Assembly: GCA_023447635.1 (NCBI GenBank) | Contig: JAEXNA010000219.1 | Coordinates: 27,678 to 91,677, forward strand | Direction: 5' to 3' | DNA: 64,000 nt | Source: Vulcanimicrobiota bacterium | Lineage (GTDB): Bacteria; Vulcanimicrobiota; Xenobia; Xenobiales; JADMJV01 | Part shown: positions 1 to 24,817 of the stretch, piece after piece | How positions within the stretch are numbered: position 1 is the stretch's first letter | Layout of the letters: each line of letters begins with the position of its first letter | Made by a program: the position numbers and the translations under genes | Notes under the pieces: model-generated | Seen by the model: only the letters and a program-made list of their open reading frames with translations | Databases searched by the model: none | Told to the model about the DNA's origin: nothing

Positions 1-1357
1 GTTCGACCGCCTCTCCCTCGGGCCGAGGGTTGTTCAGCCAGAGCACGTAGCCCGGTTCGCCGATCTCGACGAAACGGTCACCGATGCGCAGGCTAAATTC
101 GACGTAGCCTTCCTTCTTCGGCTCGTTGAAGAAGTGCTCGGTGCTTTGCAGATAGCCGCCCATCGCGACCAACCATTCGCGCAGGGTAGTGACGTGCTTC
201 TCGAACTCGACCTTGCAGACTTCCGGGTCCTCTAGCTCTCCGTAACCGGGTTCGAGTTGGCACCAGCCCGACAGCTGTCCGTTGAGGGCTAGAATCTCGG
301 TGTGCCAACGCGGCACGAACTCGAACAGTTCGTTGCGCCGGTAGAAGATGTTGATCACCGTCTTGGCAGCCAGGGAATCCGGCATACGACGCAGCGACTC
401 GAGACAGACGTTGAGCAGCTTTTCCGAGGCCGAGATCGACTGGTCGTTGTCGATGTAAGGCAGCGCCGACTTGGGCAGGGTGCCCAGCTCTTCGCAGACT
501 TTGGCGGTAACGCCGGCAAAGTAGCGAATCAAAAACTCCAGAGCGTTGCGTAGCTCGAGGCAGCCGGCCACCGCATTTTCGGCCTGCATGGCCGAAGCCA
601 AACGGTCGAGGATGGCGGTCAGATAGCTGGGCGCCTTCTGGGGAACGAAAAAGTAGAGGGGCCGTTCATACAGCGAGACGGGTACATCGATCTCTTTGTC
701 CGGAATACAGAGAGGGCAGGACGAGACCTCGATGCGCTTCCCCGCCGTCAGCGTCTGGTTACCCAGTTGGACTTTCAGGCTCTGATGCCCGTCCTGGGTG
801 GTCCTTTCGGAAACGATGGCCGCGTGGGTGAAAAGGGCCGCCGAAGACTCCAGCCATTCCCGCAGGTAAGGGATGTAATGGCGAACCTCTTCCACGCACT
901 TCTTGCGGATCGGGATCTGGGCCGCCATGAACTTGTCCAGCGACATCGTGCCGCGGCGAGGCTTGCCACCGATCTCTAGCAGGCGAGCAAACTTCTTGGG
1001 AGCGCCCCCTTCAAAGAAGCAGTCGATCAGGGCGCGGACTTCTGGCAGGTCCGCGGGAGCGTCGTGCTGCAAGAACTCGACGCCCTTGCGGATCGCCTCG
1101 ACCGCCTCGGCGGTGTCGCCCCGATCGCGGTAGTTGAACTTCAGCTCGCCAAAGACCGACGCCACGCCCTCGACCAGGTCGGCCGTGTAGGCCGCCAGGA
1201 AAGCAAACGCCTTCTTCAGGACGCGGAGAGATGTTCCCGGAGCGTCCTGATCCAAAGAGTCGTTGAGCTCATCGAGAATATGCTCGAGATGTGAAGGGGA
1301 GCCTGGAGGCAAGCTTCGCACACCAAGCTCTTTTGCTGTTAATACAACCTCAGCCAT
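1..1357 (-). CDS. partial CDS (3' end lies beyond window start): paralog of the N-terminal ~450 aa of the 1023-aa protein at 4935..8006
   Basis: Absent from the ORF track because it runs off the window edge. My translation from ATG ~1357 (MAEVVLTAKELGVRSLPPGSPSHLEHILDELNDSLDQDAPGTSLRVLKKAFAFLAAYTADLVEGVASVFGELKF...WHTEILALNGQLSGWCQLEPGYGELEDPEVCK...) stays open to position 1. It aligns colinearly with residues 1-~450 of 4935..8006. DNA of ~1-1357 is visibly similar to ~6650-8006. Confidence 0.6.
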   Translation of the reverse strand, partial: MAEVVLTAKELGVRSLPPGSPSHLEHILDELNDSLDQDAPGTSLRVLKKAFAFLAAYTADLVEGVASVFGELKFNYRDRGDTAEAVEAIRKGVEFLQHDAPADLPEVRALIDCFFEGGAPKKFARLLEIGGKPRRGTMSLDKFMAAQIPIRKKCVEEVRHYIPYLREWLESSAALFTHAAIVSERTTQDGHQSLKVQLGNQTLTAGKRIEVSSCPLCIPDKEIDVPVSLYERPLYFFVPQKAPSYLTAILDRLASAMQAENAVAGCLELRNALEFLIRYFAGVTAKVCEELGTLPKSALPYIDNDQSISASEKLLNVCLESLRRMPDSLAAKTVINIFYRRNELFEFVPRWHTEILALNGQLSGWCQLEPGYGELEDPEVCKVEFEKHVTTLREWLVAMGGYLQSTEHFFNEPKKEGYVEFSLRIGDRFVEIGEPGYVLWLNNPRPEGEAVE

Positions 1358-1475
1358 CGTAAAAGGCACGCCACAGACGGCGTGGCTGACCTACCGCTTT
1401 CTCGATACCCCGGAAAAGAAACCCACTAAAGACGGCGGTTCTCCTCGCGCGGAGCGAATCCCCCTAAAATAAGGG

Positions 1476-2459
1476 CTAGTGCTGGAACTGTTGCTCGAAG
1501 GGAGAATAGGGATCGACTACCGGGGTATATCCCAGTCGTTGGCGGGCTTGCTCGATCGAGTAGGTGTGCGAGCACCCTAGTTGCAGGGCGGAAAAGCGAG
1601 TCAGCCGCGGCTCGCCGGAAAGGCGGAGAAGTCGGTAGAGCCACTGCAGTCCGGTTCCCAACAGCACGGCCTTACGAAGGCCCAGGGAAAGTCGAACTCC
1701 TGGCAGCCCTTTCCAGGCCAGCACCTGCTCCAACCAGTCCCATAACAGGACCGGTTGGCCCGAGGTGATGAAATAGGGGCGCCCCCAGATTTCGGCGTCC
1801 TCGCGCCGGTCGAGAGCGGCCAGATGAGCGGCCACCGTATCGGCGATATGGGTGACGTCGACCCGGTTGAGCCCGTCGCCCACCCGAATCAAACCCGAAC
1901 GTGACGCCGCCGCCTCGAACACTCGAGGGAGCAGATGGGGGTCTCCCGGTCCGTAGATAAGATGCGGGCGCAGCGCCAGCGTTTGCAAAGCCCCGTCTCC
2001 GTGAGCAGCCAGCACGGCTTTTTCCGACAAGATCTTCGTCATGCAGTACGGGTTCAGCGGCGCTCGAGAATAGGGGGTGGTCTCATCGATGTCGACTTCC
2101 GAGTGCCCTGAGAAGGTGACCGACGGGGACGAGGTGTGAACGAAATATCGAACCGTGTTCTGCCGTGCCGACGCAAGCAGATTCTCCGTGGCCACCACGT
2201 TGGCGTCGTGATAGTCGCTGTAGGCGCCCCAAATTCCGGCTTTCGCGGCGGTGTGAAAGATCAGGTCGACCCCTTCGCCCAGAGGCAGAACCGCCTCCCG
2301 GTCTCGCAAGTCGACCCGGGCCACGGTCACCCCCAGCGCTTCCAGGTCGGGGGCCGGGCGACGGGCCGTCGCGATCACCTCGTGGCCTCCCCTCTCGACC
2401 AGGGCCCTGGTCAGAGCCCCGCCCAGGAACCCCTGACCTCCGCTGACCAGGATCCTCAA
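1476..2459 (-). CDS. oleD: OleD-like NAD(P)H-dependent reductase (3-beta-HSD / NAD-dependent epimerase-dehydratase family)
   Basis: N-terminal Rossmann motif MRILVSGGQGFLGGAL, YxxxK catalytic motif (PYCMTKILSEK), ~327 aa. Its start overlaps the oleC-like stop by 4 nt (2456..2459). It follows oleB- and oleC-like genes, i.e. the canonical oleBCD order. Confidence 0.8.
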   Translation of the reverse strand: MRILVSGGQGFLGGALTRALVERGGHEVIATARRPAPDLEALGVTVARVDLRDREAVLPLGEGVDLIFHTAAKAGIWGAYSDYHDANVVATENLLASARQNTVRYFVHTSSPSVTFSGHSEVDIDETTPYSRAPLNPYCMTKILSEKAVLAAHGDGALQTLALRPHLIYGPGDPHLLPRVFEAAASRSGLIRVGDGLNRVDVTHIADTVAAHLAALDRREDAEIWGRPYFITSGQPVLLWDWLEQVLAWKGLPGVRLSLGLRKAVLLGTGLQWLYRLLRLSGEPRLTRFSALQLGCSHTYSIEQARQRLGYTPVVDPYSPFEQQFQH

Positions 2460-4039
2460 GACCGATGTCTCTTGGCCCAGACGCTGAGCTCTTCTCGGTG
2501 AATCTTGGCGTTATGACGCGGGTCCACCGGCAGAGCCGGGTGGAACATGACCTGGGTGATCCCCGCGTAGGTAGGCACCTGATGGAGTAGCGCCAGGCAC
2601 TCCCGCGCCAGAACTTCGTCCCGCGAGCGGGAGCCCGCTCGCTTTTCAACCACCAGGACAGGGCGTTCACGGCCGTCGACTAAGGCGACGCGTTCGACTT
2701 CGGGGTGGGGCAGGACCAGCGCCTCGCCGGGAAGCGGATAGATCGGCTCTAAACCGGGACGTATAGGCGGCACCGTATGACTTTTTCGGCCGACCAGCCA
2801 GAGGCGTCCGAGGTCATCAAAGTAGGCCAGGTCGCCCATCAGATGCCAGACCCCTTGCTCGCTGATCACTTTGCTTACCGCCGTCGCCTCGGGCTTGCGG
2901 AAATAAGCTTCGGTCACGACCGGTCCCCGCACCGCGACTTCTCCTACTGCCCCGGCCGGCAGCGGTTCGACGCTGCGGTTTTCCGGGTCGCCGCCCTCGC
3001 TGTCGACCACCCGGACCTCGTTGAGGTTCAGCGGTCGGCCCACGCAAAGCCCCGCTCCCTGGTGGTTGCGAGCGGTTTTGGTCGTCAGCAGTTCGGACGC
3101 CTCGATGTCCGTCACGGGAAGCGCCTCGGTGGCCCCGTACGGAGTGTGGATCTTGGCGTTAGGCGCAATCTGCTGCCAGCTTTCGATAAAATCGAACGGG
3201 ATCGGCGCCCCGAAAGTGATCAAACGACGAACCGTGGGAAGCGTGATCTTCCGACGCAGGCATTCGGCGGCCACGCGTTTCCAGATGGCCGGGGAGCCTT
3301 GCAGAGAGGTCACTCCGTGCTCATGGATCTGAGCCACCAGTTCGCCCGGGCGGCACTGCGCCGGTCGACTCGGGTCCAGTGCGGGGACGACTCCGGTGAC
3401 TCCGAGCGCGGCCGAGAAAAGTCCGAACAGAGGGAAGCCGGGCAGATCGATATCGTCGTCACGGAACTGATAGACGTCCCGCAAAACTTCCACCTGGCGA
3501 CAGAAAATGCCGTGGGTGTAAACCACCCCTTTGGCCGGTCCCGTGCTGCCCGAGGTAAAGAGCACCGCCGCCATACCCGAAGCCGACGCCTCGGCAACGG
3601 GAACCTGAGCGTCCAGGCTGCCCCGACGCAGGTCGGGCACTTCGGGGAAGTGCCCCCAGCAAGCCATCACCTTGACGGTACGAAACGGCTTCGGCGCCAG
3701 TCGGCGCAGAGCGAAAGCGCGAGGGATCCCGAGCAGCGCTTCGGGCTTGACCTCGTCCACTACCTTGAGAAATCGGCCCAGCCCCATACCAGGGTCGATC
3801 AGAATCGGCACCACTCCGATCTTGAAAAGGGCAAACACGCTGGCCACGAATTCTGCCGAGTTCCGCATCAACACCAAACAGGTGACGCCTGGCTCGAAGC
3901 CGATTTTGCGAAGGCGACATGCCTGCCGGTCGACCTCGCCCCAAAGCCGGGCGAAGGTGAAGCGTCGGGACTTATCGACCAGCGCCAGGCTGTTGGTTCG
4001 AGAACGCGCGGTCTGTTCGAAGATCTCGACGATATTCAA
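2456..4039 (-). CDS. oleC: OleC-like AMP-dependent synthetase/ligase (beta-lactone synthetase family)
   Basis: AMP-binding signature LFTSGSTGPAKGVVYTHG, 527 aa. 4-nt overlaps with the oleB-like gene upstream and the oleD-like gene downstream. Confidence 0.8.
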   Translation of the reverse strand: MNIVEIFEQTARSRTNSLALVDKSRRFTFARLWGEVDRQACRLRKIGFEPGVTCLVLMRNSAEFVASVFALFKIGVVPILIDPGMGLGRFLKVVDEVKPEALLGIPRAFALRRLAPKPFRTVKVMACWGHFPEVPDLRRGSLDAQVPVAEASASGMAAVLFTSGSTGPAKGVVYTHGIFCRQVEVLRDVYQFRDDDIDLPGFPLFGLFSAALGVTGVVPALDPSRPAQCRPGELVAQIHEHGVTSLQGSPAIWKRVAAECLRRKITLPTVRRLITFGAPIPFDFIESWQQIAPNAKIHTPYGATEALPVTDIEASELLTTKTARNHQGAGLCVGRPLNLNEVRVVDSEGGDPENRSVEPLPAGAVGEVAVRGPVVTEAYFRKPEATAVSKVISEQGVWHLMGDLAYFDDLGRLWLVGRKSHTVPPIRPGLEPIYPLPGEALVLPHPEVERVALVDGRERPVLVVEKRAGSRSRDEVLARECLALLHQVPTYAGITQVMFHPALPVDPRHNAKIHREELSVWAKRHRS

Positions 4040-4938
4040 GGAAAGGCGGCCTCGATCTCGGCGATCACGCGCTCCGGCGCTTCCTCCGTCAGCAGATGGC
4101 CGCAGTCAGGATAGCTGCGCCCCCGAGCGTGGGGGAAGAAGTCGAAGAAGCGGGTCATGAAGTGAGGGGTGAAGACCCAGTCCTTCTCGCCCCAGAGCAG
4201 CAGGGTGGGAAGCTCTTTGAGCTTCTCCAGGTTTTCCTCGACCCGGGTCAGTTCGGCATAGGAGGGGTGCGCTTCGTCGAGCGGGATGTCGGCCACGAAA
4301 CGATAGGTGGCGATGCGACTGGCCCATGAATCGTAAGGTAACAGGAAGCCTTGCTTGGCCGCCGGGGTGATCCGGTCGGGATCGGCCGCGCCCAGGGTCG
4401 GGGTCAGCCCCGCAAAAGCGTTGAAGCCGCGAATCAGCAGTTGGCCCACGCTGGCCGTCCGCGCGACCTTGAGCAACCAGGGCATCCGCTGGCTGCGGAA
4501 GGCCGCCGTGTTGCCGATCACCAGTTGAGAGAAACGCTCCGGATGGCGCCCAGCGACGCCCAGGCCGATGGCCCCGCCCCAATCGTGCACCATCAGACGG
4601 ATGTTCTTCAGGTCGAGATGGAGCACCAACTCTTCGAGATGGTCGATATGCTGCTCCAGGCGATACTCGAAGTCCTGAGGCTTATCCGAGAGACCACAGC
4701 CGATGTGGTCACAGGCGACGGTTCGCATGCGATCGGAAAAATGGGCCAGCGGCTTTCGGTAGTAAAACGACCAGGTCGGGTTGCCGTGCACGAAGAGAAA
4801 CGGCTGACCTTCTCCCTGGTCGACATAATGCATGGTGTGTCCCGAACGCAGCCGATAGAACTTGGACTCGAAGGGGTACTCTTCTCTGACGGCCGGAGGC
4901 AGAGTGGAGGCAGCGCCTCCCGGGTTAGTAACGGTCAC
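4036..4938 (-). CDS. oleB: OleB-like alpha/beta-hydrolase (haloalkane-dehalogenase-like)
   Basis: HGNPTWSFYYR motif (the haloalkane-dehalogenase/OleB HGNPT signature), nucleophile elbow VHDWGGAIG, 300 aa. Its GTG start overlaps the TGA of the upstream 1023-aa gene (GTGA). Confidence 0.8.
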   Translation of the reverse strand: MTVTNPGGAASTLPPAVREEYPFESKFYRLRSGHTMHYVDQGEGQPFLFVHGNPTWSFYYRKPLAHFSDRMRTVACDHIGCGLSDKPQDFEYRLEQHIDHLEELVLHLDLKNIRLMVHDWGGAIGLGVAGRHPERFSQLVIGNTAAFRSQRMPWLLKVARTASVGQLLIRGFNAFAGLTPTLGAADPDRITPAAKQGFLLPYDSWASRIATYRFVADIPLDEAHPSYAELTRVEENLEKLKELPTLLLWGEKDWVFTPHFMTRFFDFFPHARGRSYPDCGHLLTEEAPERVIAEIEAAFP

Positions 4939-7900
4939 GCGGAAACTCCCAGCAAAATGGTTGTAAAGAAGATGAACCAGGCCGCCACGGTGATGCTCTT
5001 GCGAACGGTGGGGTTAAGGAAAAGATCGTCGAGTTTTTGAGTCAACGACATCTCCTGATAATACGTCGCGCCGAAGTTCAGGCCAATAAAATATAGGTAC
5101 AGCCCGTAAAAGTCCATCCCTGGGAAGTCGGAAGACGAGGAAAAGAAGTTCGAGAGCACCGGGGTAAACATACAGACGCCAACAAAAATCGAGGGAAGGA
5201 TCATCATGACTACCCGCCGCTTTTCGAGCAGCTCCTGGGTGCTCGGCGGCATCCGACGATAGGCTCGCGCCACCAGAATCGGGACCAGGCCGGCTATCGC
5301 CAGATAGAGGTAGCCCACCAACTGGGAAGGCGCGACCACCCTGCCGTAAGCGTCGGGAGCGTCTTGAATGAGGCGTAGGGTTTCGTAGCCTCGCCCCAGC
5401 ATTTCGGTCAAGGCTCCGTTCATCCATGCCGAAGCAGCATGGAAAGCCGTGACCAGTGCCGACAGCAGCACCAGGTTGGGGATCAGCAGTTTGAACACCC
5501 CAAAACCTTTGCTGACCGGACGCGCCTTGGCCTGACCGATCATCTCATAAACCGAGATCGTGCGCTCTTCGTGCGCCGTTTTGAGCAAAATGAAGACTTC
5601 GTGGGTGTCGGGCAGTTCGTCGGTGTCGACCCAGTACGACAGCTGCACCTTGTTACCACGGAAGCGCGCCGGCTCGACCTCGATGCAGTCGTCGGTCGTG
5701 GTGGCCGCCCCCGACAGCGTGCCTCCTCCGGCGTTGGTCAGCACGATGTAGCCCGCCGCGCACGTTTTGCCCTTCGAGTTGGGCCGATCGCCGATCAGAT
5801 CGACGCGATGGACCAGGAAAGGACGCTCTTTCTCTCTTTCCTCCGGCGTCTTCTTACGGGTGGGAACGTCGACCAGGTCTTCATCGAAAGCGAGGTCGGG
5901 CGGGGGCAGTTCTGGCGCCTCGATGTCCGGCACCTGATCCGCTCCGGGGCGGATGTAAAAGGTGTAGTCCGGCGCCACCAGTTCCAGATAGATATCCGAG
6001 TATTCGATGACCAACTCGGTGCGCCCCGTCTTATCCGGCGGCTCTTCGTGGTGCTGGCACTCCCGGAAGAACGGTCCGGCCATGGCCATCCAGTCCTGCA
6101 AGGTCGGCATGAAGCGCTCGAGCTCTCGCTTGGCTCGTGCCGGGCTCGAGAGCACACCAACGCCTGCCACCAACGAGCAGAACTGAGCCAGATTCTGCAT
6201 CTTGCTCGACGGATCCGCATCGAGGGCTAGCAGTCGCGCGTGCGCGCCCGTCGGCTTCTCTTCGTGGGAGAGCTCTTCTTCGTAGTAGAAGACGTTGCGG
6301 ACGGCGTGCCCTAACTTCTCTTCCCCCTCACGTCCGATCGAGCGAAGCGCCAGGATCAGCAGCTTCTCGCAGTCGTGGATGGACAGCGAGGATTCGGCCA
6401 GCTTCTCGGCCTCGGGCGGCAGAGTACCCAAACGGCGGAACGCCGCCGCGGCCACACCCGCAAAATATCGGGTCAAGTAGTCCAGCGAATCGCGCAGCGA
6501 GGCGCACGACTCGACCGGGTCGCCCAGCCGCAGATAGAGGTCCATGCGGGTGAGAATTCGCTCTAAAACCTTGGGGCAGTGGGGCGGAATCTCCAGCGAT
6601 TCGCGGATCAGCGGCTTAGCCGCGACAACTTCCCCTTCGCTCTCCTCGATGACCCCCTCACCTTCCGGGCGAGGGTTGTTCAGCCAGAGCAAGTATCCGG
6701 GCTCGCCTACCTCGACGAAACGGTCGCCGATGCGTAGGGAGAACTCGACACTGCCGTCCGGTCGCGGCTCGTTGAAGAAGTGTTCGGTGCTTTGCAGGTA
6801 GCCGCCCAGCGCGACCAGCCACTCTCGCAGAGTGGGGACGTGCTTTTCGAACTCGAGTTTGCAGACCTCGGGGTCTTCGAGCTCACCGTAGCCAGGCTCG
6901 AGTTGGCACCAGCCGGCAAGCTGACCGTGCAGGGCTAGAATCTGGGTGTGCCAGCGAGGGACGAAGGCAAAGTGCTCGTTACGCCGGTAGAAGATACCGG
7001 TCAGCGTCTTGGCGGCCAGCGAGTCGGGCATCCGTCGCAAAGCCTCGAGGCTATAGTTCAATAGCGCTTCCGACGACGACACCGAGGCGCTGTTATCGAG
7101 CAGCGGTACGGCCGCTCGAGGCAAGGTGTTCAGGTCCTCGCACACCTTGGAGGCGACGCCCGCGAAGTAGCGGATAAGGAACTCCAGGGCGTTGCGAAGT
7201 TCAAGACAGCCAGCCACCGCGTCCTTGGCCCTCATGGCTTCGTCCAGCCGGTCCAAAATGGTGGAAAGAAACTTCGGCGCCTTCTGAGGGACAAAGAAGT
7301 AGACCGGACGCTCGTAGAGCGAAAGCGGGACGTCGATCTCCTTCTCCGGGATACAGAGCGGGCAGGACGACACCTCGATCCGCTTGCCCGCCACGATCGT
7401 CTGCTTGCCCAGCTCGACCCGGATCGACTGATGCCCTTGCAGCGAAGTCCGCTCCGAGATGATGCGAGCGGCAGAAAACAGCGGAGTCAGGTTCTCCAGC
7501 CACTCGCGCAAGTAAGGCGTGTAGTGGCGAACTTCTTGAACGCACTTCTTACGCACCGGGATCGGCGCTTCCAGAAACCGGTCCAACGCCATCGTGCCAC
7601 GTCGGGGCTTGCCGCCGATCTCGAGCAGCCTGGCGAACTTCTTCGGAGTCCCCGCGTCATAGAAGCAGTCGACCAGAGCGCGAACTTCGGGCAGTTCTCC
7701 CGGCGCGTCGGCCTGCAGGAAAGCCAACCCCCGACGTAAGGTATCGACCGTCTCTTCGATATCGCCGCGCTTCTTGAACTTGAACTTCAGCTCGCCAAAA
7801 ACCGAGGCGACGCCTTCCACCAGGTCGGCCAGGTAGCAAGAGATAAACCCCAAAGTGCGCTTGAGCACCCGCAGCGAGGTGCCGGGAGCATCCAGGTCCA

Positions 7901-8006
7901 GCGATTCGTTGAGCTCGTCGAGCAGATGCTCGAGATGTGCCGGGGCGCCCGGATAAAGCGTGGGGACGCCCAGCTCCCTGGCTGTCAGAGCCTCCTCTAC
8001 CGCCAC
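4935..8006 (-). CDS. large hypothetical protein: internally duplicated N-terminal modules, a beta-rich middle segment, and a C-terminal ~5-TM membrane anchor; no family recognised
   Basis: 1023-aa ORF with SD-like GAGAGGA ~12 nt upstream of the ATG. Residues ~230-300 (LSTILDRLDEAMRAKDAVAGCLELRNALEFLIRYFAGVASKV) recur at ~490-560 (CPKVLERILTRMDLYLRLGDPVESCASLRDSLDYLTRYFAGVAAAAF). Residues ~395-450 recur at ~640-700. C-terminal hydrophobic helices include FKLLIPNLVLLSALVTAF, LVGYLYLAIAGLVPILV, VVMMILPSIFVGVCMF, YGLYLYFIGLNFG, ITVAAWFIFFTTILLGV. Translationally coupled to oleB. Confidence 0.7.
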   Translation of the reverse strand: MAVEEALTARELGVPTLYPGAPAHLEHLLDELNESLDLDAPGTSLRVLKRTLGFISCYLADLVEGVASVFGELKFKFKKRGDIEETVDTLRRGLAFLQADAPGELPEVRALVDCFYDAGTPKKFARLLEIGGKPRRGTMALDRFLEAPIPVRKKCVQEVRHYTPYLREWLENLTPLFSAARIISERTSLQGHQSIRVELGKQTIVAGKRIEVSSCPLCIPEKEIDVPLSLYERPVYFFVPQKAPKFLSTILDRLDEAMRAKDAVAGCLELRNALEFLIRYFAGVASKVCEDLNTLPRAAVPLLDNSASVSSSEALLNYSLEALRRMPDSLAAKTLTGIFYRRNEHFAFVPRWHTQILALHGQLAGWCQLEPGYGELEDPEVCKLEFEKHVPTLREWLVALGGYLQSTEHFFNEPRPDGSVEFSLRIGDRFVEVGEPGYLLWLNNPRPEGEGVIEESEGEVVAAKPLIRESLEIPPHCPKVLERILTRMDLYLRLGDPVESCASLRDSLDYLTRYFAGVAAAAFRRLGTLPPEAEKLAESSLSIHDCEKLLILALRSIGREGEEKLGHAVRNVFYYEEELSHEEKPTGAHARLLALDADPSSKMQNLAQFCSLVAGVGVLSSPARAKRELERFMPTLQDWMAMAGPFFRECQHHEEPPDKTGRTELVIEYSDIYLELVAPDYTFYIRPGADQVPDIEAPELPPPDLAFDEDLVDVPTRKKTPEEREKERPFLVHRVDLIGDRPNSKGKTCAAGYIVLTNAGGGTLSGAATTTDDCIEVEPARFRGNKVQLSYWVDTDELPDTHEVFILLKTAHEERTISVYEMIGQAKARPVSKGFGVFKLLIPNLVLLSALVTAFHAASAWMNGALTEMLGRGYETLRLIQDAPDAYGRVVAPSQLVGYLYLAIAGLVPILVARAYRRMPPSTQELLEKRRVVMMILPSIFVGVCMFTPVLSNFFSSSSDFPGMDFYGLYLYFIGLNFGATYYQEMSLTQKLDDLFLNPTVRKSITVAAWFIFFTTILLGVSA

Positions 8007-15526: not shown

Positions 15527-18500
15527 TTAGCGAGCGAGGGCGCCGCTCAGACCGAAGGCGGCCTTCAGGGCGTCGTCGGCGGTCCACTCGAGCCGCTCGA
15601 AGCGGCCCAGCAGGTTGCCCTTGGCGTCAATCAGGTCGCAGTCGGCCACCAGGGCGCGGTCGCTGTGGCTGACCACCTTCAGGACGGCCTTCACGCCGCT
15701 CTTCGGGTAGCGGTTGACGAACTGGCGATAGTGGGCGAAGCCGTTCGGCAGCGAAGGCTTGCCCAGACCGTCCCAGCACCAGAGAATGCCAAGCTGCAGC
15801 ACTCCGTCGACCACTAGCGGTTCGGTGGCCCAGTCCGAGCGCAGCGGATCTCGTTCCCACTCGGCGGGTTTCCCGGCCGACTTCAGTTCGGCCACCAGGC
15901 CGCCTTCGGAGATGCCCGACACCCCGCTCACGGCGTGGAAATCCGGCCCGTGGAAGAGCAGTTCCGAGTAGATGGCGTCGGGCGAGTGGCTATAGCTGCG
16001 CGTGCTCAGAGGGGCGGGATCGAACGGCGCGGGGGCGCTGTCCTGAGCGTCGCCCAGGACCACGGTCGCCCGAGCGTGCAGCGCGTTGCGGCCGGTGTCC
16101 TTGAGCTCTAACGTCGCGTGGGTGCGACCGTCGACGACCTTCGTCGAGACCACGCTCACGGCAAGCGTCGGCTCGACCCCACCGCTTACGGTGACGCCGC
16201 GGAACACCCGCAGATCATCGAGGCCCACCAGGCGCATTCCGGCGCCCGAGAGCAGGGCGCCCTGAGTGAACCATTCCATCATGAAAGCCATCGGTAGCAC
16301 CGGCTGACCTTTGAGCTTGTGCGAATCGAGGAACGGCAGTGCGCTGACCGAGATCGCCTTCTGCAGGAGCTGCTCTCCCCCACCGCTCTGCCCCTCGCTC
16401 GAGGACGAGGTGCGCGGCTTGGGAGAGACCGGCTCGGGGAAGCCGTCGCCGAACAGCACTTCGGCCTGGCCGGCACCGTGGTGCGACAGTTCATCAACCA
16501 CGGCCTGAGCGCCGGCTTCGAGCGGGATCAAGCCCACGCCGATCCGCTCGAACTCTCGAGCCAGGGCGGGAGTGACCATTCCGCCCGCCCAGGGACCCCA
16601 GCCCATGGCGACCATGGTGCAGCGGGGGCGGCGGCGCGATTCTAGCTGGGCGAACTTATTGAGCACCTCGTTGGCCATGCAGTAGTCGACCTGACCGGGC
16701 CGTCCGAAGCGGGCGGTCACGGACGAGAAGAACAGCATGGTCTTCAAGTCGGGCAGCAGTTCGTTGAGGATGAGCAAGCTGTCGATCTTGGTCGAGAAGA
16801 CGCTCTGGAACATCTCGTCGGTCTTGTCTTCGATCTTGCGGTCGGCCAGCACGCCGGCGCCGTGGATCAGGGTGGTGATGGCCCCGAGCTGCTTCTGCAC
16901 TTCGGCCAGGCCGGCTTTCAGACCGTCCTTATCGCGCACATCGCAAGCCAGGTAAACAGCTTCCACTCCGGCCTCAGCGAAGGCGGCCAGAGTTCCCTGC
17001 ATCTCACGCTGAGCGGCGACCTTGTTGGCCACGCCCTGGAGGTCCTTCGGCGTCGCTTTGCCGCCGAACTGGCGCTGCATGATCTCGCGCTTGAGAGCGC
17101 CTTCATCCTCGATACCGGGATAGAGGTCGAAGTCGGGTCCTTCCAGCGGGGTGCGTCCCAGCAGGACGAACTTGCTGCCGTAGGCGCGAGCGGTGGCGAT
17201 AGCGCAGGCTGCGGTCACGCCGCGAGCGCCACCGGTCACCAGCACGACGTCCTTCTTGCCCAGGCGAGGAGCTCCCGCACTGGCCTGAGCCGTCGCGGTG
17301 ACCAGGGTCTCGCGACGACCGGGGCTTAGCGCGACTTCAACCGGGCCGTCTTTCATCAGCTCTTCGAGCACCGTTTCCACGGTGATCTCCGGATGACGAT
17401 CGATGGCGCGGGTGAACACCTCGGGCCACTCGTGAGCTACCGTCTTGGGCAAGCCGGCCAGACCGCCGATGAAGGGGTCGAACGCCTTGCCCTTGAGGCC
17501 GAAGCTGCCGTCCAGGGTGGTTACGGTGAACAGCGCGCCGCCGCTCTTACGCAGAGCCGGCGCCGCTTCGCGGGTGCGCTGGAAAGCGGTCATCAGGAAC
17601 TCGCGCGAACGCTGTCCGTCGCCGCCGTTGCCGACCAGCACCAGAGCGCCCAGGTTGGCCGGGAGGGCGCTGCCCGCCTCGACCTTCTCCACCTCCACGC
17701 CGCGCGACTGCAGGGCACCGACCAGTTCGTCGCCGAGGCCGGGGGTGTCCTCGAGCACGGCCAGAACCGCGCCCTCAGGCAGGGGCAGGCCGCTGGCCTG
17801 TCCCGGGCCCAGGTCGATCAGCTGCAGGCACTGACGGCTGATGGTACGAGCTGCGGGGGGAGCTGCCACAACGGTCGGAGCGACCACATGCGCGGCCGCA
17901 GCCCCACCAGCCGGAGTCATCGCGACCACGATTTCTCCCAGGGTGCGCAGGCTGCCGAGGCGGTCAGCGTCGACCTTGGGAAGGCCGGGCATGACTTCCT
18001 CGACGGAGGCCAGAATTTCCACCCGCTTGATGCTGTCGATGCCCAGGTCGGACTCCAGGTCCATCTCCAGGTTCAGCATCTCCTGCGGATAGCCGGTCTT
18101 CTCGGCCACCACGGCCAGCAGAGCGGCGGTCACGCCCGAGGCGTCCCCTCCACCGGAAGCGGCCGGAGCAGCAGGGGCGGCGGGGGCAGCCGCTGCAGGA
18201 GCGATCCCTTTGGGAGTCATCGCTTCCACGATCTCGCCCAGGGTGTGCAGACTGCCCAGACGGTCGCTGTCGACCTTGGGCAGACCGGGCAGCGCTTCTT
18301 CTACCGAAGCCAGGATCTCGACCCGCTTGATGCTGTCGATCCCCAGGTCGGACTCCAGGTCCATCTCCAGCGTCAGCATGTCCACGGGGTAGCCGGTCTT
18401 CTCGGCCACCACGACCATCAGCGCTTTGGCCACGCCGGGGTCGGTCGCGGGAACGCCCGTCGCAGGAGCGGCGTGGGCGGTCAACTGGGGCTGCAGGTCG

Positions 18501-21500
18501 CCGGCCGGGGTCATCGCTTCCACGATTTCGCCCAGGGTGTGCAAGCTGCCGAGACGGTCGCTGTCCACCTTGGGAAGGCCGGGCATGGCTTCTTCCACGG
18601 AGGCCAGGATTTCAACCCGCTTGATGCTGTCGATCCCCAGGTCGGACTCCAGGTCCATCTCCAGGGTCAGCATATCCACCGGGTAACCGGTTTTCTCGGC
18701 CACCACGTTCATCAGGGCGCGGGCCACTCCGGTGGCACCAAGGCCCATGGCGGGGGCAGAGTGGGAGGCGGCGGCGGGCGCCGAAGCGGTGGAAGCGGGA
18801 ACGCCTGCGGCCGGGGTCATCGCGGCCACGATCTCGCCCAGCGTGCGCAGGCTGCCGAGACGGTCGCTGTCCACCTTGGGAAGACCGGGAACGGCTTCTT
18901 CCACGGCGGCCAGAATCTCGACGCGCTTGATGCTGTCGATCCCCAGGTCGGCTTCGAGATCCATCTCCAGGTTGAGCATCTCGGCCGGGTAGCCGGTCTT
19001 GTCGGCGACCACCTTGAGCAGTGCGCCGGAGACGGCTCCGGAGGGAGCTGCGGAGGAGGCGGTGGGAGCGGAAGCGGTGGGAGCGGAAGCGGGAAGTCCG
19101 CCGGCCGGAGTCATCGCGGTGACGATCTCGCCCAGCGTGCGCAGGCTACCGAGGCGGTCGCTGTCCACCTTGGGCAGCCCGGGAACGGCTTCCTCGACGG
19201 CGGCCAGGATCTCGACGCGCTTGATGCTATCGATACCGAGGTCGGCCTCCAGGTCCATCTCCAGATTCAGCATCTCTACGGGGTAGCCGGTTTTGTCGGC
19301 CACCACCTTGAGCAGAGCGCTCGAAACCGCTCCAGAGGGAGCCGCAGAGGCAGCGGGAGCAGCAACGGGAGCGGCCGCTTTGGGTAGTCCGCCGGCCGGG
19401 GTCATCGCGGTCACGATCTCGCCCAGCGTGCGCAGAGCGCCCAGACGGTCGCTGTCCACCTTGGGAAGGCCGGGAACGGCTTCTTCGACGGCGGCCAGGA
19501 TCTCGACCCGCTTGATGCTGTCGATGCCCAGGTCGGCTTCGAGATCCATCTCTAGATTCAGCATCTCCTGGGGGTAGCCGGTCTTGTCGGCGACGACCTT
19601 GAGCAGCGCCTTCGAGACCGAATCGTCGGCCACGCCGCTGCCCAGCACCTGGTCGACCGGCGAGGCCACCGAGGCGATAGCGGGGGTGTGAACCTTCACC
19701 GGTGCCGGTGCCGGTGCCGGTGCCGGGCGGGCCGCCACAGGGGCGGGAGCCGCAGCGGCCGGGCGTGCCGGAGGGGCAACGGGAGCCGGCGCGATGGGGC
19801 GCGCGGGCGCCGCAACGACGGGAGCCGAAGACACGGGAGCCGGAGCTACGGGGCGAGCCGGGGCGGCAGGAGCAGCGGCGTGCTGCGCGGCCTGACCGGC
19901 CAGCAGCGCACCCAGAGCGCTCTGAGCCGCTTCCTGGCTTTTCAGGAACTGCTGATGGACCTGAGCCGTCTGGCGTGTCAGCTCTTGCAGCGCCTCGAGG
20001 TGAGGCAGCAGGCTGTCCAGAGCCGCCGGAGCGGCCACGGGAGCGACAGGGCGCTGAGGCGCCGGGGCCTGGGCAGGAGCCTTGGCTGCAGCTACAGAGG
20101 ACGGAGTCGGAGCAGCTGGAGCGGGAGCCGCCGGACGAGCCGGAGGGGTCGCTGGCAGGCTGACCGTAGCTTTGGCTACCGCAGGAGCGCTGTGAGCCGC
20201 CGGAAGAGCCGCCTTTACGACGGGAGCTGCAGCGGGAGCGGCGCTCTTGACGCCAACCGAATTGGGCTCGCGCACGGGCGGCTTCTTGCCGTTGCCCGAG
20301 CGGTAGTTGGCGCCCGAGATCGGCACCGTCATGCGGCGCTTGGCTTCGGCGGCGGGCTTCTCTTCCCACTGCGCCAGCTCGACCGGTAGACCGGCGGCCG
20401 CCAGTTCGGCAAGAGCCGTGGCAAGGTCCAGCAGTCCGCTTTTCTTGCCTACCGAGCGGTCCATCGGAACCACCTTGATGTCGCTCTTGTCTTTGAGGAT
20501 CGCCTTGACCAGACCGGTCAGCACCGTCTTCGGGCCCACCTCGATGAAGGTGCGGAATCCGTCGGCGTACATCTTCTCGATCAGGCCCACGAAGTTGACC
20601 TGGTGCACCAGCTGGTCGGCCAGCAGAGCCCGGGCGGTCTTGCCGCTGGCGGGATACAGCTCGGCGGTCTTGTTGGCGTAAACCGGGATTTCGGACTTGT
20701 TGAACTTGACCTTACCGGCCACCTTGTGGAACGGGTCGCGAGCGCCCGCTACGAAAGAGCTGTGGAAGGCGGCGCCGACTTTGAGCGGCACGCCGCGCAG
20801 GCCGGCCTTCTTCAGCTCGGGGGCCAGCGCTTCGAGGTCCTTGGCGGAGCCGCTCAGCACGCACTGGTCCGGAGAGTTACGGTTGGCCAGAACCACGGGA
20901 GTCTTGGTCTCGGCCAGAACCTGCTCGACCTTGTCCAGGGTGCCCTTGACGGCCATCATGGTGCCCAGGTCGTCGCCCTGCGAGGCCATCAGGCGGCCGC
21001 GCTCGCGGGACAGCTCGACCAGGCCCTCCCCGTCCAGGACGCCGGCGGCGTACAGGGCGGACAGCTCGCCGTAAGAGTGACCGGCGGTGCCTTCCGGCTT
21101 GAGGCCGAAGCGCTCGAGCAGGTGGAAGTAGCCGCGCTCCATCACGCCCAGAGCGGGCTGGGCGCGGTCGGTGGCGGTCAGGAAGTCGCCCTGGGCGGCT
21201 TCTTCGGCCTTGTCGAACACGGGCACCGGGTAGATGGCGTGAGCGATGTCGCGACCGGTGGCCTCCAGCGACTCGAGCAGTTCGGGGAAGGCGCAAGCCA
21301 GGTCCACGCCCATGTTCACATACTGCGAACCCTGACCGGGGAAGAGGAAGGCGACCTTGCCGTTGTCGGCGCTGCCCGACGAGGAAAACTCGGAGGCTTC
21401 GCCCTTCTTTAGCTTGTCCAGAGCGGCCGTCAGCGCGCTCGCGAAGTCGTCGGACAGCGCCGGCACCACCAGGCGGTGAGCATCGGCGCGGTTGAACGAC

Positions 21501-23047
21501 TGGCGGGATTCCCAGGCGATCAGCGAGGAGTGGCGGCTGTCGTCGAGGGCGCCCTGCACCTTCTTGATCAGCTCGTCCTTGGATCCGGCCGAGAAGGCGG
21601 CCAGTTCGACGCTGCCGTCCCAGGCCGTATCCTTACGCTGAGCGCCGTACTCTTCGAGCACCAGATGGAAGTTGCTGCCGCCGAAGCCGAAAGAAGACAG
21701 TCCGGCCCGGCGAGGGTGATCGGGGTGCGAGACCCAGGGGCGGCTGATGGTGTTCAGATAGAACGCGCTGTCTTCGATGCCCAGCTTGGGGTTCGGCTTG
21801 GTGATGTTGATGGTGGGCGGGAAGATCTTGTAGTGCAGCGCGAGAGCCGCCTTGATCAAGCCAGCCGAACCGGCGGCGGCTTTGGTGTGCCCGATCTGGG
21901 ACTTCACCGAACCCATGGCGCACCAGTTTTTGTCGCTGGAAACCTCGCCATAGACGGTCTTGAGCCCTTCGAACTCGACCACGTCACCGACCTTGGTTCC
22001 GGTACCGTGGGCTTCCACCAGCTCTACCGTGCGGGGCGAAACTTCGGCGTTCTCGTAAGCGCGGCGCAAGGCGCGAGCCTGTCCGTGCGACATCGGAGCG
22101 TAGACCGCGCCGCCTTTCCCGTCGCTGGCCGTTCCGACGCCGCGGATCACGGCGTAGATCTTGTCGCCGTCACGCTCGGCGTCGGCCAGGCGCTTGAGTA
22201 CGACCATGCCCAGGCCTTCACCCAGCATGGTGCCGTCGCTTTCGGCGTCGAACGGACGGATCTTCCCGGAGGCTGACAGGGCGGGCGTCTTCGAGAAGCA
22301 CATGAACATGAAGATGTCGTTGAAAGTGTCGGTACCGCCGGTGATCACCATGTCGGCCTGACCGGTCTGCAGTTCCAGGAACGCCAGGTGAGCCGCCGAC
22401 AGGGTCGAGGCGCAGGCCGCATCGACCACGCAGTTGGTCCCGTGCAGGTCCAGGCGGTTGGCGATACGTCCGGCGACCACGTTACCAAGCAGACCGGGGA
22501 ACGAGTTCTCCTGCCAGGGCACGTAGTCGGCCGAGATGCGCTGCATGACCTCTTCCACCAGCTCCGGGCCCAGGCCCGACTCTTGCAGCGCCTTCTTCCA
22601 GTAGGGGTGGCCCAGGCGAGCGCCCAGCGGAACCACCAGTTCGAGAGTGCCGGTGACACCCAGGATGACCGAGGTGGTGCTGCGGTCGAACTCGCGGTCC
22701 GGTCCATAACCGGCGTCTTCCAGGGCCGCCTTGGCAGCGACCAGACCCAGCAGCTGCGAGGTGTCGGTCGCCTCCAGCGCGGTGGGCGGCATGGAGAACT
22801 CTGTGGGGTCGAAAGGATAGGGATCCAGGAAGCCGCCGCGGCGACAGTAGGTCATATCCGACGCCTTCTGGTTGGCGTCGAAGTAGTCGTCCGGACTCCA
22901 ATGGGTGTCCGGGATCTCCGAAATGGTGTCAGTGCCGAGTCGAAGGATCTTCCAGAAAGACTTCAGGTTGTTGGCCTTCGGATAGAGGGCCGACATGCCC
23001 ACGATGGCGATGTCGGTTCTCTGGGACTGAGCGGGAGCGTTCTTCAT
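15527..23047 (-). CDS. pfaA: PUFA-synthase-type PKS subunit PfaA-like: KS-MAT-6xACP-KR-DH
   Basis: KS (DAACASTLSAAHLAF, EAHGTGTKVGD, GHTKAAAG). MAT (FLFPGQGSQYVNMG, GHSYGELSALYAAG). Six tandem ACPs, each with the LGIDSIKRVEIL phosphopantetheine-site motif. KR (VVLVTGGARGVTAACAIA). C-terminal PKS-type DH. Confidence 0.9.
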   Translation of the reverse strand: MKNAPAQSQRTDIAIVGMSALYPKANNLKSFWKILRLGTDTISEIPDTHWSPDDYFDANQKASDMTYCRRGGFLDPYPFDPTEFSMPPTALEATDTSQLLGLVAAKAALEDAGYGPDREFDRSTTSVILGVTGTLELVVPLGARLGHPYWKKALQESGLGPELVEEVMQRISADYVPWQENSFPGLLGNVVAGRIANRLDLHGTNCVVDAACASTLSAAHLAFLELQTGQADMVITGGTDTFNDIFMFMCFSKTPALSASGKIRPFDAESDGTMLGEGLGMVVLKRLADAERDGDKIYAVIRGVGTASDGKGGAVYAPMSHGQARALRRAYENAEVSPRTVELVEAHGTGTKVGDVVEFEGLKTVYGEVSSDKNWCAMGSVKSQIGHTKAAAGSAGLIKAALALHYKIFPPTINITKPNPKLGIEDSAFYLNTISRPWVSHPDHPRRAGLSSFGFGGSNFHLVLEEYGAQRKDTAWDGSVELAAFSAGSKDELIKKVQGALDDSRHSSLIAWESRQSFNRADAHRLVVPALSDDFASALTAALDKLKKGEASEFSSSGSADNGKVAFLFPGQGSQYVNMGVDLACAFPELLESLEATGRDIAHAIYPVPVFDKAEEAAQGDFLTATDRAQPALGVMERGYFHLLERFGLKPEGTAGHSYGELSALYAAGVLDGEGLVELSRERGRLMASQGDDLGTMMAVKGTLDKVEQVLAETKTPVVLANRNSPDQCVLSGSAKDLEALAPELKKAGLRGVPLKVGAAFHSSFVAGARDPFHKVAGKVKFNKSEIPVYANKTAELYPASGKTARALLADQLVHQVNFVGLIEKMYADGFRTFIEVGPKTVLTGLVKAILKDKSDIKVVPMDRSVGKKSGLLDLATALAELAAAGLPVELAQWEEKPAAEAKRRMTVPISGANYRSGNGKKPPVREPNSVGVKSAAPAAAPVVKAALPAAHSAPAVAKATVSLPATPPARPAAPAPAAPTPSSVAAAKAPAQAPAPQRPVAPVAAPAALDSLLPHLEALQELTRQTAQVHQQFLKSQEAAQSALGALLAGQAAQHAAAPAAPARPVAPAPVSSAPVVAAPARPIAPAPVAPPARPAAAAPAPVAARPAPAPAPAPVKVHTPAIASVASPVDQVLGSGVADDSVSKALLKVVADKTGYPQEMLNLEMDLEADLGIDSIKRVEILAAVEEAVPGLPKVDSDRLGALRTLGEIVTAMTPAGGLPKAAAPVAAPAASAAPSGAVSSALLKVVADKTGYPVEMLNLEMDLEADLGIDSIKRVEILAAVEEAVPGLPKVDSDRLGSLRTLGEIVTAMTPAGGLPASAPTASAPTASSAAPSGAVSGALLKVVADKTGYPAEMLNLEMDLEADLGIDSIKRVEILAAVEEAVPGLPKVDSDRLGSLRTLGEIVAAMTPAAGVPASTASAPAAASHSAPAMGLGATGVARALMNVVAEKTGYPVDMLTLEMDLESDLGIDSIKRVEILASVEEAMPGLPKVDSDRLGSLHTLGEIVEAMTPAGDLQPQLTAHAAPATGVPATDPGVAKALMVVVAEKTGYPVDMLTLEMDLESDLGIDSIKRVEILASVEEALPGLPKVDSDRLGSLHTLGEIVEAMTPKGIAPAAAAPAAPAAPAASGGGDASGVTAALLAVVAEKTGYPQEMLNLEMDLESDLGIDSIKRVEILASVEEVMPGLPKVDADRLGSLRTLGEIVVAMTPAGGAAAAHVVAPTVVAAPPAARTISRQCLQLIDLGPGQASGLPLPEGAVLAVLEDTPGLGDELVGALQSRGVEVEKVEAGSALPANLGALVLVGNGGDGQRSREFLMTAFQRTREAAPALRKSGGALFTVTTLDGSFGLKGKAFDPFIGGLAGLPKTVAHEWPEVFTRAIDRHPEITVETVLEELMKDGPVEVALSPGRRETLVTATAQASAGAPRLGKKDVVLVTGGARGVTAACAIATARAYGSKFVLLGRTPLEGPDFDLYPGIEDEGALKREIMQRQFGGKATPKDLQGVANKVAAQREMQGTLAAFAEAGVEAVYLACDVRDKDGLKAGLAEVQKQLGAITTLIHGAGVLADRKIEDKTDEMFQSVFSTKIDSLLILNELLPDLKTMLFFSSVTARFGRPGQVDYCMANEVLNKFAQLESRRRPRCTMVAMGWGPWAGGMVTPALAREFERIGVGLIPLEAGAQAVVDELSHHGAGQAEVLFGDGFPEPVSPKPRTSSSSEGQSGGGEQLLQKAISVSALPFLDSHKLKGQPVLPMAFMMEWFTQGALLSGAGMRLVGLDDLRVFRGVTVSGGVEPTLAVSVVSTKVVDGRTHATLELKDTGRNALHARATVVLGDAQDSAPAPFDPAPLSTRSYSHSPDAIYSELLFHGPDFHAVSGVSGISEGGLVAELKSAGKPAEWERDPLRSDWATEPLVVDGVLQLGILWCWDGLGKPSLPNGFAHYRQFVNRYPKSGVKAVLKVVSHSDRALVADCDLIDAKGNLLGRFERLEWTADDALKAAFGLSGALAR
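17890..19630 (-). repeat. six tandem ~290-bp ACP-encoding repeats within pfaA
   Basis: The peptide xxALLKVVADKTGYPxEMLNLEMDLEADLGIDSIKRVEILAAVEEAVPGLPKVDSDRLGSLRTLGEIV recurs six times. The repeats also show up as a ladder of near-identical spurious plus-strand ORFs (17841.., 18210.., 18426.., 18732.., 18999.., 19293..). Confidence 0.85.
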
Positions 23048-23092: not shown

Positions 23093-24727
23093 TTACGAGA
23101 AGTAGGGCGCGAGTTCGGCGTCCGTTTTGGGGCGGAACTCCTGCAGCTCGTGACTCAACGGCACGCCCTGCTGACGCAAGGCGTGGACCCGGCCCAGATA
23201 AGCGGCGCCGGCGAGAATATTACGGGCGACCACGCCCGCTTGGCGAGCCTTCGGCTCGGCCAGATAGCTGTCGCCGACCCACTGGTTGAAGGCGCCCATG
23301 GCGGGACCGCACCAAACCTGGTAGTCGACCTTGCGGTCGGCGATACCCGAGTTGGCCCAGCCCGAGGCGCGGCCGAGGTAGGAGCGGAAGACCAGTGCCA
23401 TCTTGTGTTTGGGGTCGGCGGCGGCGCGCTGGTTCTGGCGCGGGTCGCGACCTTCGAAGAATTTGTGGGTGTCGGCCCAGACTTCGTCGAGGGTCTGACG
23501 GAAGAAGGTCTTCTCCAGCACGGCGCGCTCGGAGGCGGGCAGCTCTTCCATAGAGCCGTAGTCGCGGTAAAGCTGATACAGCTTCTTGGCGCGCACGGGG
23601 AACATAGTGCCCCACTTCAGCACCTGGACCTGAACGCCCATTTCGAACATATCGGCGGCAGGCGCCATCGCCATGTCGGCTTGTCCGGCTTTGCACAGCA
23701 TCTCGCGCACGATATCAGAGCTTCCCGACTCGAGGCAGGACTGGTTGACGCTTCCGGTCAGAATGTAAGAAGCGCCCATCGCAAAGGCGGCACAGGCCGA
23801 GGCCGGGGTCGAGATACCGCCGGCAGCGCCAACCCGCAGCACCACGCCGCGGTCGCCGTACAGCTTCTGCTTCTCGTCGCGCAGAGCGATCATGGTAGGA
23901 AGCAGAGCCAGAGCCGGGCGGTTATCGGTATGTCCGCCGGAATCGGCTTCGGCCGTCAGGTCTTCGACCACCGGCATCAAGGCGGCAAGTTCCGCCTGTT
24001 CGGGGGTCAGGTCGCCGCGCTGCACCAGTTCGCGCAGCATCTTCTCGGGCGGCGGAGCGAAAAACTTCTCGGCCACCTCGACGCGAGACACCTTGCCCAG
24101 CACCTGCTGGCGCATCACGATCTCGCCGTTGTCGTTGCGCGAGATGCCGTGGAAACGGTACTTCAAGAGCGGGAGCGTCAGACCCAGGTAGGCCGAGGCG
24201 CTGACCCGCTTGACCCCTTTGCGAAGGTAGAGATCGACGATCCCCTCTTCCAGGTCGGGCTCGTTGGGCGAGTGGATCAAGTTCGAGCCGAACGGCTTGT
24301 CGCCCAGGCTCGCTTGCAGGCGGTCGATCGATTTCTCGACCACGTGCAGCGGAAGTCCGGCGGCGCCGAACACGCCCAGCGTGTTGGCCTCGGCGGCGGC
24401 CTGGACCAGTTCGACCGAGGTGATGCCGTTGGCCATCGCCCCGACCACATAGGAGTAGTCGACTCCGTGGGCCTTCCGGAACGAGGCGTCGCCCAACCCC
24501 GCGGGGGTCAGTGAAGGCAAGAAGCCGGCAAAGGTCCAGCCGTCTCCATCGCCTGCGCCCAGTTCGCCCTTGTCCACAGGGGCCAGCGCGATCTCATCGC
24601 CCTTGCGCACCACGAAATAGGATTCGCCCAGAGACTGCAGCCCCTGTCCTAAACCCTCTTGTCCTTGTAGCAGAGCGCTCGTGTCGCCCCTCCAACCCAA
24701 CTTCGCCGTCATACTCAAAACGTCCAT
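23093..24727 (-). CDS. pfaD: PfaD-like FMN-dependent trans-acting enoyl reductase (2-nitropropane-dioxygenase-like)
   Basis: PfaD hallmarks: ...LGWRGD... near the N-terminus, VGAMANGITSVELVQAAAEANTLGVFGAAGL, and a TIM-barrel ER core. The track ORF extends to 24817, but the first ~30 aa look arbitrary. ATG at ~24727 (MDVLSMTAKLGW) or ~24712 gives the usual ~540-aa length. Confidence 0.85.
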   Translation of the reverse strand: MDVLSMTAKLGWRGDTSALLQGQEGLGQGLQSLGESYFVVRKGDEIALAPVDKGELGAGDGDGWTFAGFLPSLTPAGLGDASFRKAHGVDYSYVVGAMANGITSVELVQAAAEANTLGVFGAAGLPLHVVEKSIDRLQASLGDKPFGSNLIHSPNEPDLEEGIVDLYLRKGVKRVSASAYLGLTLPLLKYRFHGISRNDNGEIVMRQQVLGKVSRVEVAEKFFAPPPEKMLRELVQRGDLTPEQAELAALMPVVEDLTAEADSGGHTDNRPALALLPTMIALRDEKQKLYGDRGVVLRVGAAGGISTPASACAAFAMGASYILTGSVNQSCLESGSSDIVREMLCKAGQADMAMAPAADMFEMGVQVQVLKWGTMFPVRAKKLYQLYRDYGSMEELPASERAVLEKTFFRQTLDEVWADTHKFFEGRDPRQNQRAAADPKHKMALVFRSYLGRASGWANSGIADRKVDYQVWCGPAMGAFNQWVGDSYLAEPKARQAGVVARNILAGAAYLGRVHALRQQGVPLSHELQEFRPKTDAELAPYFS

Positions 24728-24817
24728 TCCACCGCCACGATTCCTAGCGACAGACCTCGCGAAGCGGCATGAAGCCGCGCCCAGGTCCATGCCGTTCCCT
24801 TTTGGGGAGGTCGGCAC

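Follow-up and report, generated by a model that had tools for sequence, protein, structure and literature searches.

What might a large membrane protein without recognisable domains be doing between the genes of a Pfa-type synthase and homologs of oleB, oleC and oleD, at a locus that lacks OleA? The question is raised by gene X, which encodes 1023 amino acids on the minus strand (4935-8006) of a 64,000-nucleotide stretch of the Vulcanimicrobiota bacterium contig JAEXNA010000219.1 (positions 27,678 to 91,677), the whole of which is called the window below. The locus can best be regarded as the known Pfa/Ole hydrocarbon system in a variant form, which, from sequence and structural models, appears to contain a new protein family of narrow taxonomic range. 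For X itself, the role that is tentatively favoured is that of a non-catalytic platform, anchored in the membrane and facing the cytoplasm, on which the Pfa/OleBCD pathway would be docked or regulated. Both Ole and Pfa pathways attract study because they yield hydrocarbons and beta-lactones, and it is unsettled how OleBCD hands over its very hydrophobic products to the membrane and how clusters without OleA are supplied with substrate; a conserved, dedicated membrane protein in a pfa-oleBCD cluster that has no OleA offers a concrete candidate for this link, and one open to testing. With synteny and predicted structure as its sole basis, the case is a good lead and not a discovery.

X stands in one co-oriented array, read on the minus strand as pfaD, pfaA, pfaC, X, oleB, oleC, oleD and X′, the last being a paralog of X:

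23093..24817, minus strand: pfaD-family enoyl reductase (TIGR02814, 598.8 bits, over the cut-off)
15527..23047, minus strand: pfaA-like synthase subunit, KS-AT-ACP-KR-DH, 2506 amino acids
8264..15466, minus strand: pfaC-like synthase subunit, KS-CLF-AT-DH-DH, 2400 amino acids, 257 bp upstream of X
4935..8006, minus strand: gene X, 1023 amino acids, with three R-repeats, an immunoglobulin (Ig)-like sandwich and five transmembrane (TM) helices (open reading frame, translation, AlphaFold2 model and domain hidden Markov models, HMMs)
4036..4938, minus strand: oleB-like alpha/beta hydrolase (best Pfam/NCBIfam match), with its GTG start inside the overlap with the X stop
2456..4039, minus strand: oleC-like AMP-dependent synthetase (olefin beta-lactone synthetase models are the top named matches after a generic ligase family)
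1476..2459, minus strand: oleD-like SDR reductase (best match 2-alkyl-3-oxoalkanoate reductase, under the cut-off)
1..1357, minus strand: paralog X′, of which the first 452 codons lie in the window (the full 1020 amino acids are at 16650-19712 of the public source contig, L001)

The ‘ole’ names of these neighbours are best named matches only. Specifically, the OleC-like protein scores 398 bits against the NF045786 equivalog cut-off of 900, and the OleD-like protein 300 bits against the NF042422 equivalog cut-off of 580, so that neither cut-off is reached; for OleC, the threshold of the broader PRK09274 family is passed (510.6 against 478). The hydrolase, AMP-ligase and SDR genes are contiguous, co-oriented and overlapping in the order oleB-oleC-oleD, which is retained at 11 related loci and also across distant phyla. 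The stop codon of X and the GTG start of oleB overlap in the GTGA at 4935-4938, an overlap correctly reported in the preliminary description of this stretch, and the OleB N-terminus translated from this GTG lines up with residues conserved in OleB. X, oleB, oleC and oleD overlap mutually, with gaps of 257 bp between pfaC and X (8007-8263) and of 118 bp between oleD and X′ (1358-1475). X-oleBCD may form a translationally coupled unit apart from the pfa genes; a promoter and terminator consensus scan of 1200-8500 gave nothing beyond shuffled expectation. The earlier statement that X is expressed stoichiometrically with OleBCD over-reads the 4-nucleotide overlap, which is absent in the related locus L024 described next.

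The docking reading draws first on conserved gene order. Every checked locus with a protein at least 57% identical to X (L001, L002/L008, L009, L010, L011, L012, L013, L014, L016 and L023) has the order pfaC-X-oleBCD, and the pfa-X-oleBCD synteny is found in 11 checked loci when L024, from a metagenome-assembled genome (MAG) labelled Armatimonadetes, is included; at least 20 contigs are apparently common to the X and OleC hit tables. L024 carries pfaC, an X ortholog (1008 amino acids, 41% identical, with the same three repeats, Ig and TM end), a 904-amino-acid membrane protein, oleB, oleC (its product 46% identical), oleD and two more large proteins without assignment. In a neighbour-joining tree (no support values) the L024 copy falls outside the Xenobia copies, ole-linked and non-ole alike, which would make the linkage with ole genes deep. 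Moreover, X is about as conserved as the enzymes beside it (at L002, 77% for X versus 69% for OleD; at L014, 59% for X versus 50% for OleC), and at L002 the 4-nucleotide X/oleB overlap is present again.

The relation of X to X′ bears on the age of the duplication. A second copy after oleD with recognisably similar DNA had been pointed out already, and inside the window X′ is indeed 75% identical to X in amino acids and 74% in nucleotides; no X paralogs beyond these two were found in the window. The gene for X′ is complete on the public source contig (ENA ERZ24927784 NODE_290, locus L001), with 1020 amino acids and the Ig and TM end present, which answers the earlier question whether the paralog outside the window also carries the anchor. 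The synonymous divergence (dS) between X and X′ is ~1.36, which is saturated, the nonsynonymous divergence (dN) is 0.20 and dN/dS is ~0.15, which shows purifying selection; divergence is greatest in the TM module (56% amino acid identity). In the family tree, X clusters with the first copies from other genomes and not with X′, and a JGI assembly made independently (L023) again has the layout pfaC-X-oleB-oleC-oleD-X′. The hit table suggests further contigs with two family copies (six candidates, of which the one checked is L023). The duplication is therefore old, because dS is saturated, the tree groups the copies in this way and the two-copy layout is seen in an independent assembly. A recent or still-homogenising duplication, as first supposed, is ruled out by the saturation and the tree, with the L023 layout pointing the same way, and an assembly artefact, which would have explained the DNA similarity trivially, is excluded by all three observations.

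The protein itself divides into five parts:

7302..8006, minus strand: repeat A, residues 1-235, the most divergent copy, with invariant HxxH (H24, H27) and CPxC (C215, C218)
6597..7301, minus strand: repeat B, residues 236-470, a helical bundle plus small beta-sheet, with a disordered linker (447-462) at its end
5898..6596, minus strand: repeat C, residues 471-~703 (pairwise comparison, AlphaFold2 model, repeat HMM)
5517..5897, minus strand: disordered linker 704-728 and Ig-like beta-sandwich ~729-830, MSP/ASH/PapD-like
4938..5516, minus strand: C-terminal membrane module, residues 831-1023, about five TM helices (hydropathy; AlphaFold2 helices 833-1022)

The preliminary description had proposed an N-terminal module of ~450 residues followed by partial copies of its segments. 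When the protein is cut into thirds and these are compared, the N-terminal part is instead found to consist of three tandem repeats of ~220-230 residues each. Repeats B and C are 32% identical (E 7e-35), A matches C at E 6e-6 and B at E 1e-3, and a single repeat HMM matches all three at E 1e-72 to 1e-91. The same periodicity is visible in a BLAST comparison of X with X′, where a second alignment places residues 239-692 onto 16-451 (E 3e-32). In the AlphaFold2 model of the full-length protein (mean pLDDT 81.9; linkers 447-462 and 704-728 disordered) every repeat consists of a ~150-residue helical bundle and, after it, a small beta-sheet, and repeat B modelled in isolation reaches a pLDDT of 92.1 and a pTM of 0.91. 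This unit is called the R-domain here. The HxxH of repeat A (7926-7937, minus strand) lies near the start of that repeat and the CPxC (7353-7364, minus strand) in its terminal beta region; a relative with a single R-domain (P0064) shares the pair, and a structural zinc site is possible. In the alignments no polar motif is common to all three repeats or to the R-domains of other architectures, which argues against a shared active site.

The beta-rich segment and the C-terminal anchor of about five helices that had been described are both borne out by hydropathy and by the AlphaFold2 model. The TM segments fall by hydropathy at about 837-860, 893-915, 932-953, 963-984 and 1003-1023, P909 and Y983 are invariant within the bundle, and basic residues are located ahead of TM1, in the TM2-TM3 loop and ahead of TM5. 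By the positive-inside rule the module should be N-in, with ~830 residues in the cytoplasm, since hydropathy gives no N-terminal signal or TM segment; the sandwich should likewise be cytoplasmic, because in relatives of kinase-Ig-TM layout a cytoplasmic kinase domain directly precedes the Ig part. The modelled sandwich is a seven-stranded Ig-like fold that can be superimposed on MSP and ASH domains.

Homology searches place X in no characterised family. X, X′ and distant members have no Pfam, NCBIfam or PADLOC match (for X, the lack of recognisable domains had been foreseen), a profile search of the PDB by sequence gave only chance-level TM matches (E >= 0.04), and Foldseek of the full model against the PDB found no match at E <= 0.001 and Ig-fold matches only, with MSP domains aligned onto the sandwich at the top. 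The corresponding region of kinase-linked relatives does match DUF5717_N, BACON_2, HYDIN_VesB_CFA65-like_Ig and ASH. The R-domain and the module formed by sandwich and membrane helices (Ig+5TM) are both predicted to fold confidently and are not in Pfam, NCBIfam or PADLOC. No published description of the X family, of either module or of a pfa-oleBCD cluster that has such a gene and lacks OleA was found in a literature search that included DUF5717 and the ole or PUFA (polyunsaturated fatty acid) clusters of Eremiobacterota/Xenobia.

Could X then be an enzyme or a transporter of the pathway, that is, a chemical replacement of OleA, or an exporter or flippase that moves hydrocarbons or beta-lactones through its five-helix module? 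In three oleBCD clusters that have neither X nor pfa genes, namely L025 (a JGI metagenome contig), L026 (a Phycisphaerae MAG) and L027 (GCA_964486935.1, with a second SDR-type gene at the expected place of oleB), an OleA-like FabH gene adjoins oleBCD in L025 and L027. Probes made from these two find nothing in the 64-kb window or at any X-bearing locus, so the missing OleA step noted earlier is real for the window. This distribution, together with the invariant H24, H27, C215 and C218 of repeat A and the conserved TM residues, is what an enzyme or transporter would lead one to expect. Against it, X has no thiolase or FabH fold and no Pfam match; the Cys/His set resembles a structural metal site and is limited to repeat A; the five TM helices come with neither an ATPase nor a known transporter fold, their PDB sequence matches being at chance level; and any condensation would more plausibly be provided by KS domains within the Pfa-type synthase. 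Such a role is thus improbable. As for the functional replacement of OleA that had been suggested from the start, it is rejected if read as a catalytic one: there is no ACP_syn_III, ACP_syn_III_C or NCBIfam match, no thiolase motif, no thiolase among the structural matches, and the repeat is a helical bundle with a weak likeness to HEPN domains. The gene content suggests that a PUFA-type synthase could lead to an olefin or a beta-lactone independently of OleA, which would be of interest in its own right.

The wider family offers a different kind of evidence. A word-indexed search returned 53 relatives, nearly all of ~1020 amino acids and one labelled Vulcanimicrobiota, and an exhaustive profile search of 1.84 billion representative proteins found only 131. 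When one repeat HMM and one Ig+TM HMM are mapped onto the relatives, the two modules are seen to recombine independently. The R-domain occurs in one, two, three or four copies before the Ig+TM end (proteins of ~560, ~1000 and ~1600 amino acids), and also at the N-terminus of proteins of 1,700-2,500 amino acids. In the two of these that were scanned (P0096 and P0107; there are about a dozen besides) one or more R-domains are followed by NACHT/AAA_16 and then TPR, the layout of a STAND NTPase. Conversely, Ig+5TM without R-domains forms the C-terminus of ~570-amino-acid proteins with an N-terminal Ser/Thr kinase (Pkinase) domain, which match the X profile over positions ~710-1015 at E 1e-11 to 1e-19. 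These partners are signalling proteins, which suggests that the general role of the family is docking or signalling at the membrane and not lipid chemistry; the module combinations point to a generic role of this kind that one clade would have applied to the ole pathway.

Many HEPN domains stand at the terminus of STAND NTPases, as the R-domain does. In the model, the R-domain core looks like an up-and-down helical bundle, and the PDB structures that match it best are HEPN domains (a superfamily that includes HEPN/MNT toxins, Csm6 and the Roquin HEPN), the similarity being weak. The R-domain could accordingly be imagined as a divergent HEPN-type effector (an RNase or other enzyme) of systems resembling conflict or abortive infection, its position beside oleBCD being incidental or a secondary co-option. 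The catalytic HEPN motif Rx4-6H, expected where the last core helix begins, was not found when repeats A, B and C were aligned with 28 R-domains taken from STAND and R-Ig-TM proteins. A single polar motif recurs in this alignment, PRxHTRWL, which lies in a different element and is degenerate in X. A hmmscan of 21 isolated R-domains against Pfam (E<=10) likewise gave no HEPN family, only scattered chance matches. An effector of this type is even less probable than an enzyme or transporter, and both readings have little support.

More serious is the possibility that X is a membrane sensor or regulator, in which Ig+5TM would sense the lipid or hydrocarbon content or the fluidity of the membrane, as it would also do in the Ser/Thr kinases that have it, and the R-domains would modulate Ole/Pfa enzymes or contact the R-domain STAND NTPases homotypically. 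The occurrence of Ig+5TM at the end of Pkinase proteins, the N-terminal effector or adaptor position of the R-domain ahead of NACHT/AAA_16 and TPR, the parallel between the single-R+Ig+TM and kinase+Ig+TM layouts and the conserved residues within the TM bundle are all consistent with it, as is the fact that paralogs away from ole genes adjoin PilZ, GGDEF/EAL, GAF-histidine-kinase and hemerythrin genes. In the ole clade, in turn, the gene is part of a biosynthetic operon with overlapping start and stop codons, a setting that one would sooner expect for a pathway component than for a regulator. A sensor or regulator is a possible explanation with a somewhat lower claim than a docking platform; it is nearly as good, and the two roles are compatible.

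As a docking platform, X would be a polytopic inner-membrane protein with three specialised R-domains and the MSP/ASH-like sandwich in the cytoplasm, followed by five TM helices. The ole-linked clade would keep the soluble assembly of OleBCD, and perhaps the Pfa-type synthase as well, at the inner face of the membrane, and the very hydrophobic beta-lactone or olefin products would thereby be made at the place of their deposition. X would presumably bind the Ole and Pfa proteins physically, and presumably do so without catalysis of its own. This reading is preferred because the gene order pfaC-X-oleB-oleC-oleD is conserved, L024 included; because X overlaps oleB in the GTGA, is conserved on a par with the enzymes and has a dN/dS of ~0.15; because the bulk of X would be cytoplasmic and its sandwich is MSP-like; and because OleA is lacking at the X loci while OleA-like genes flank oleBCD in loci without X. 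The membrane scaffold for OleBCD proposed in the preliminary description is therefore viable, and on the synteny of 11 loci and the overlap it is the leading hypothesis.

Several points weigh against it. The neighbourhood evidence comes from one phylum-level lineage and one outlier MAG, and is phylogenetically non-independent; in the latter (L024), X and oleB are separated by another gene and the 4-nucleotide overlap is missing. That modules are shared with kinases and with STAND NTPases agrees just as well with a role in signalling, and a five-helix bundle with invariant P909 and Y983 exceeds the needs of a simple anchor. Furthermore, paralogs with the same 3R+Ig+TM architecture and 31-52% identity exist away from ole and pfa genes, so the architecture is not Ole-specific. 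These loci (at most 52% identity: L015, from the same MAG as L010, L005, L007, L017-L019, L003/L020 and L021) have T2SSF, pilin-like N_methyl, PilZ, GGDEF/EAL, GAF hybrid kinase, hemerythrin, GNAT and GT2 genes as neighbours. Co-occurrence of the family with oleBCD thus holds for orthologs of at least 57% identity and for L024, and breaks down among the more distant paralogs.

A bolder extension of the docking platform takes the R-domain as an undescribed adaptor fold and lets X and X′ assume the coupling role that OleA has in Shewanella, bridging the Pfa-type synthase and OleBCD on the membrane in an OleA-independent metabolon that would make polyunsaturated hydrocarbons or beta-lactones; this is doubtful. 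The remaining probability goes to X being a neighbour with an unrelated role.

PMC6463001 (citing Christenson et al. 2017) reports that OleBCD forms a large multimeric complex fed by OleA and that, in Shewanella, OleA mediates the link of the Pfa synthase to this complex. Compared with the OleABCD/Pfa systems of Shewanella and Xanthomonas, the present locus has the oleB, oleC and oleD homologs in the same order, with overlapping frames and beside pfaD/pfaA/pfaC-type genes; it differs in that there is no oleA in the window or at the X loci, that OleC and OleD are under the equivalog cut-offs and that a large, often duplicated membrane protein is embedded, which is not described for characterised ole clusters. 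The MSP domains of VAP and MOSPD2 are membrane-anchored docking modules. These eukaryotic tethers of the endoplasmic reticulum have no detectable sequence relationship to X, which also has five TM helices where they have one tail anchor, plus three large extra domains; the likeness may be only the shared Ig-like fold, as ASH, PapD-like and adaptin-ear domains score similarly. The Ser/Thr kinases with C-terminal Ig (DUF5717_N/BACON-like) and multi-TM parts do share a homologous Ig+5TM module with X, although a Pkinase domain stands where X has R-domains. Defining the R-domain and Ig+5TM would improve the annotation of the poorly studied Eremiobacterota/Vulcanimicrobiota.

Some minor observations may be added. 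The window and the public source contig (L001) differ at a single base among 18,006 compared, namely position 6440, which alters codon 523 of X; the window encodes F there, in agreement with the family consensus, and the public record encodes V. Three pfa-X-oleBCD loci with 59-77% identity (L008, L012 and L016) are labelled Selenomonadaceae or Burkholderiales, and their close relatives are Vulcanimicrobiota or Candidatus Xenobia; these labels are probably due to mis-binning or mislabelling. Family members away from ole genes lie beside type II secretion or type IV pilus-like genes and cyclic di-GMP genes (L003:3943-10130, L005:1-12952 and L007:464-7615), the pilus-like neighbours including an MshEN/T2SSE ATPase with VWA domains. 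Only 3.8 kb separate a single-R+Ig+TM gene from the 3R+Ig+TM gene in L005.

Finally, a second family of large proteins (720-993 amino acids) is encoded four times in the window (28156-30921, plus strand; 32792-35773, minus; 37011-39173, minus; 39798-42707, plus) and a fifth time just past its end (L001:19729-22089, minus). It has no Pfam match, and in NCBIfam only Chlor_Arch_YYY is found, for 39798-42707, at E 0.004 and far under the cut-off. Two members in L024 (6375-9089 and 12673-15483) directly flank oleBCD; they have a multi-TM N-terminus, a ‘DDDYWIH’-type motif and a non-hydrophobic C-terminal half, and are 31-46% identical to three of the window paralogs and 27-31% to the one at 37011-39173 and the L001 copy. 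The family may represent GT-C-like glycosyltransferases, and may have a link to the same pathway.

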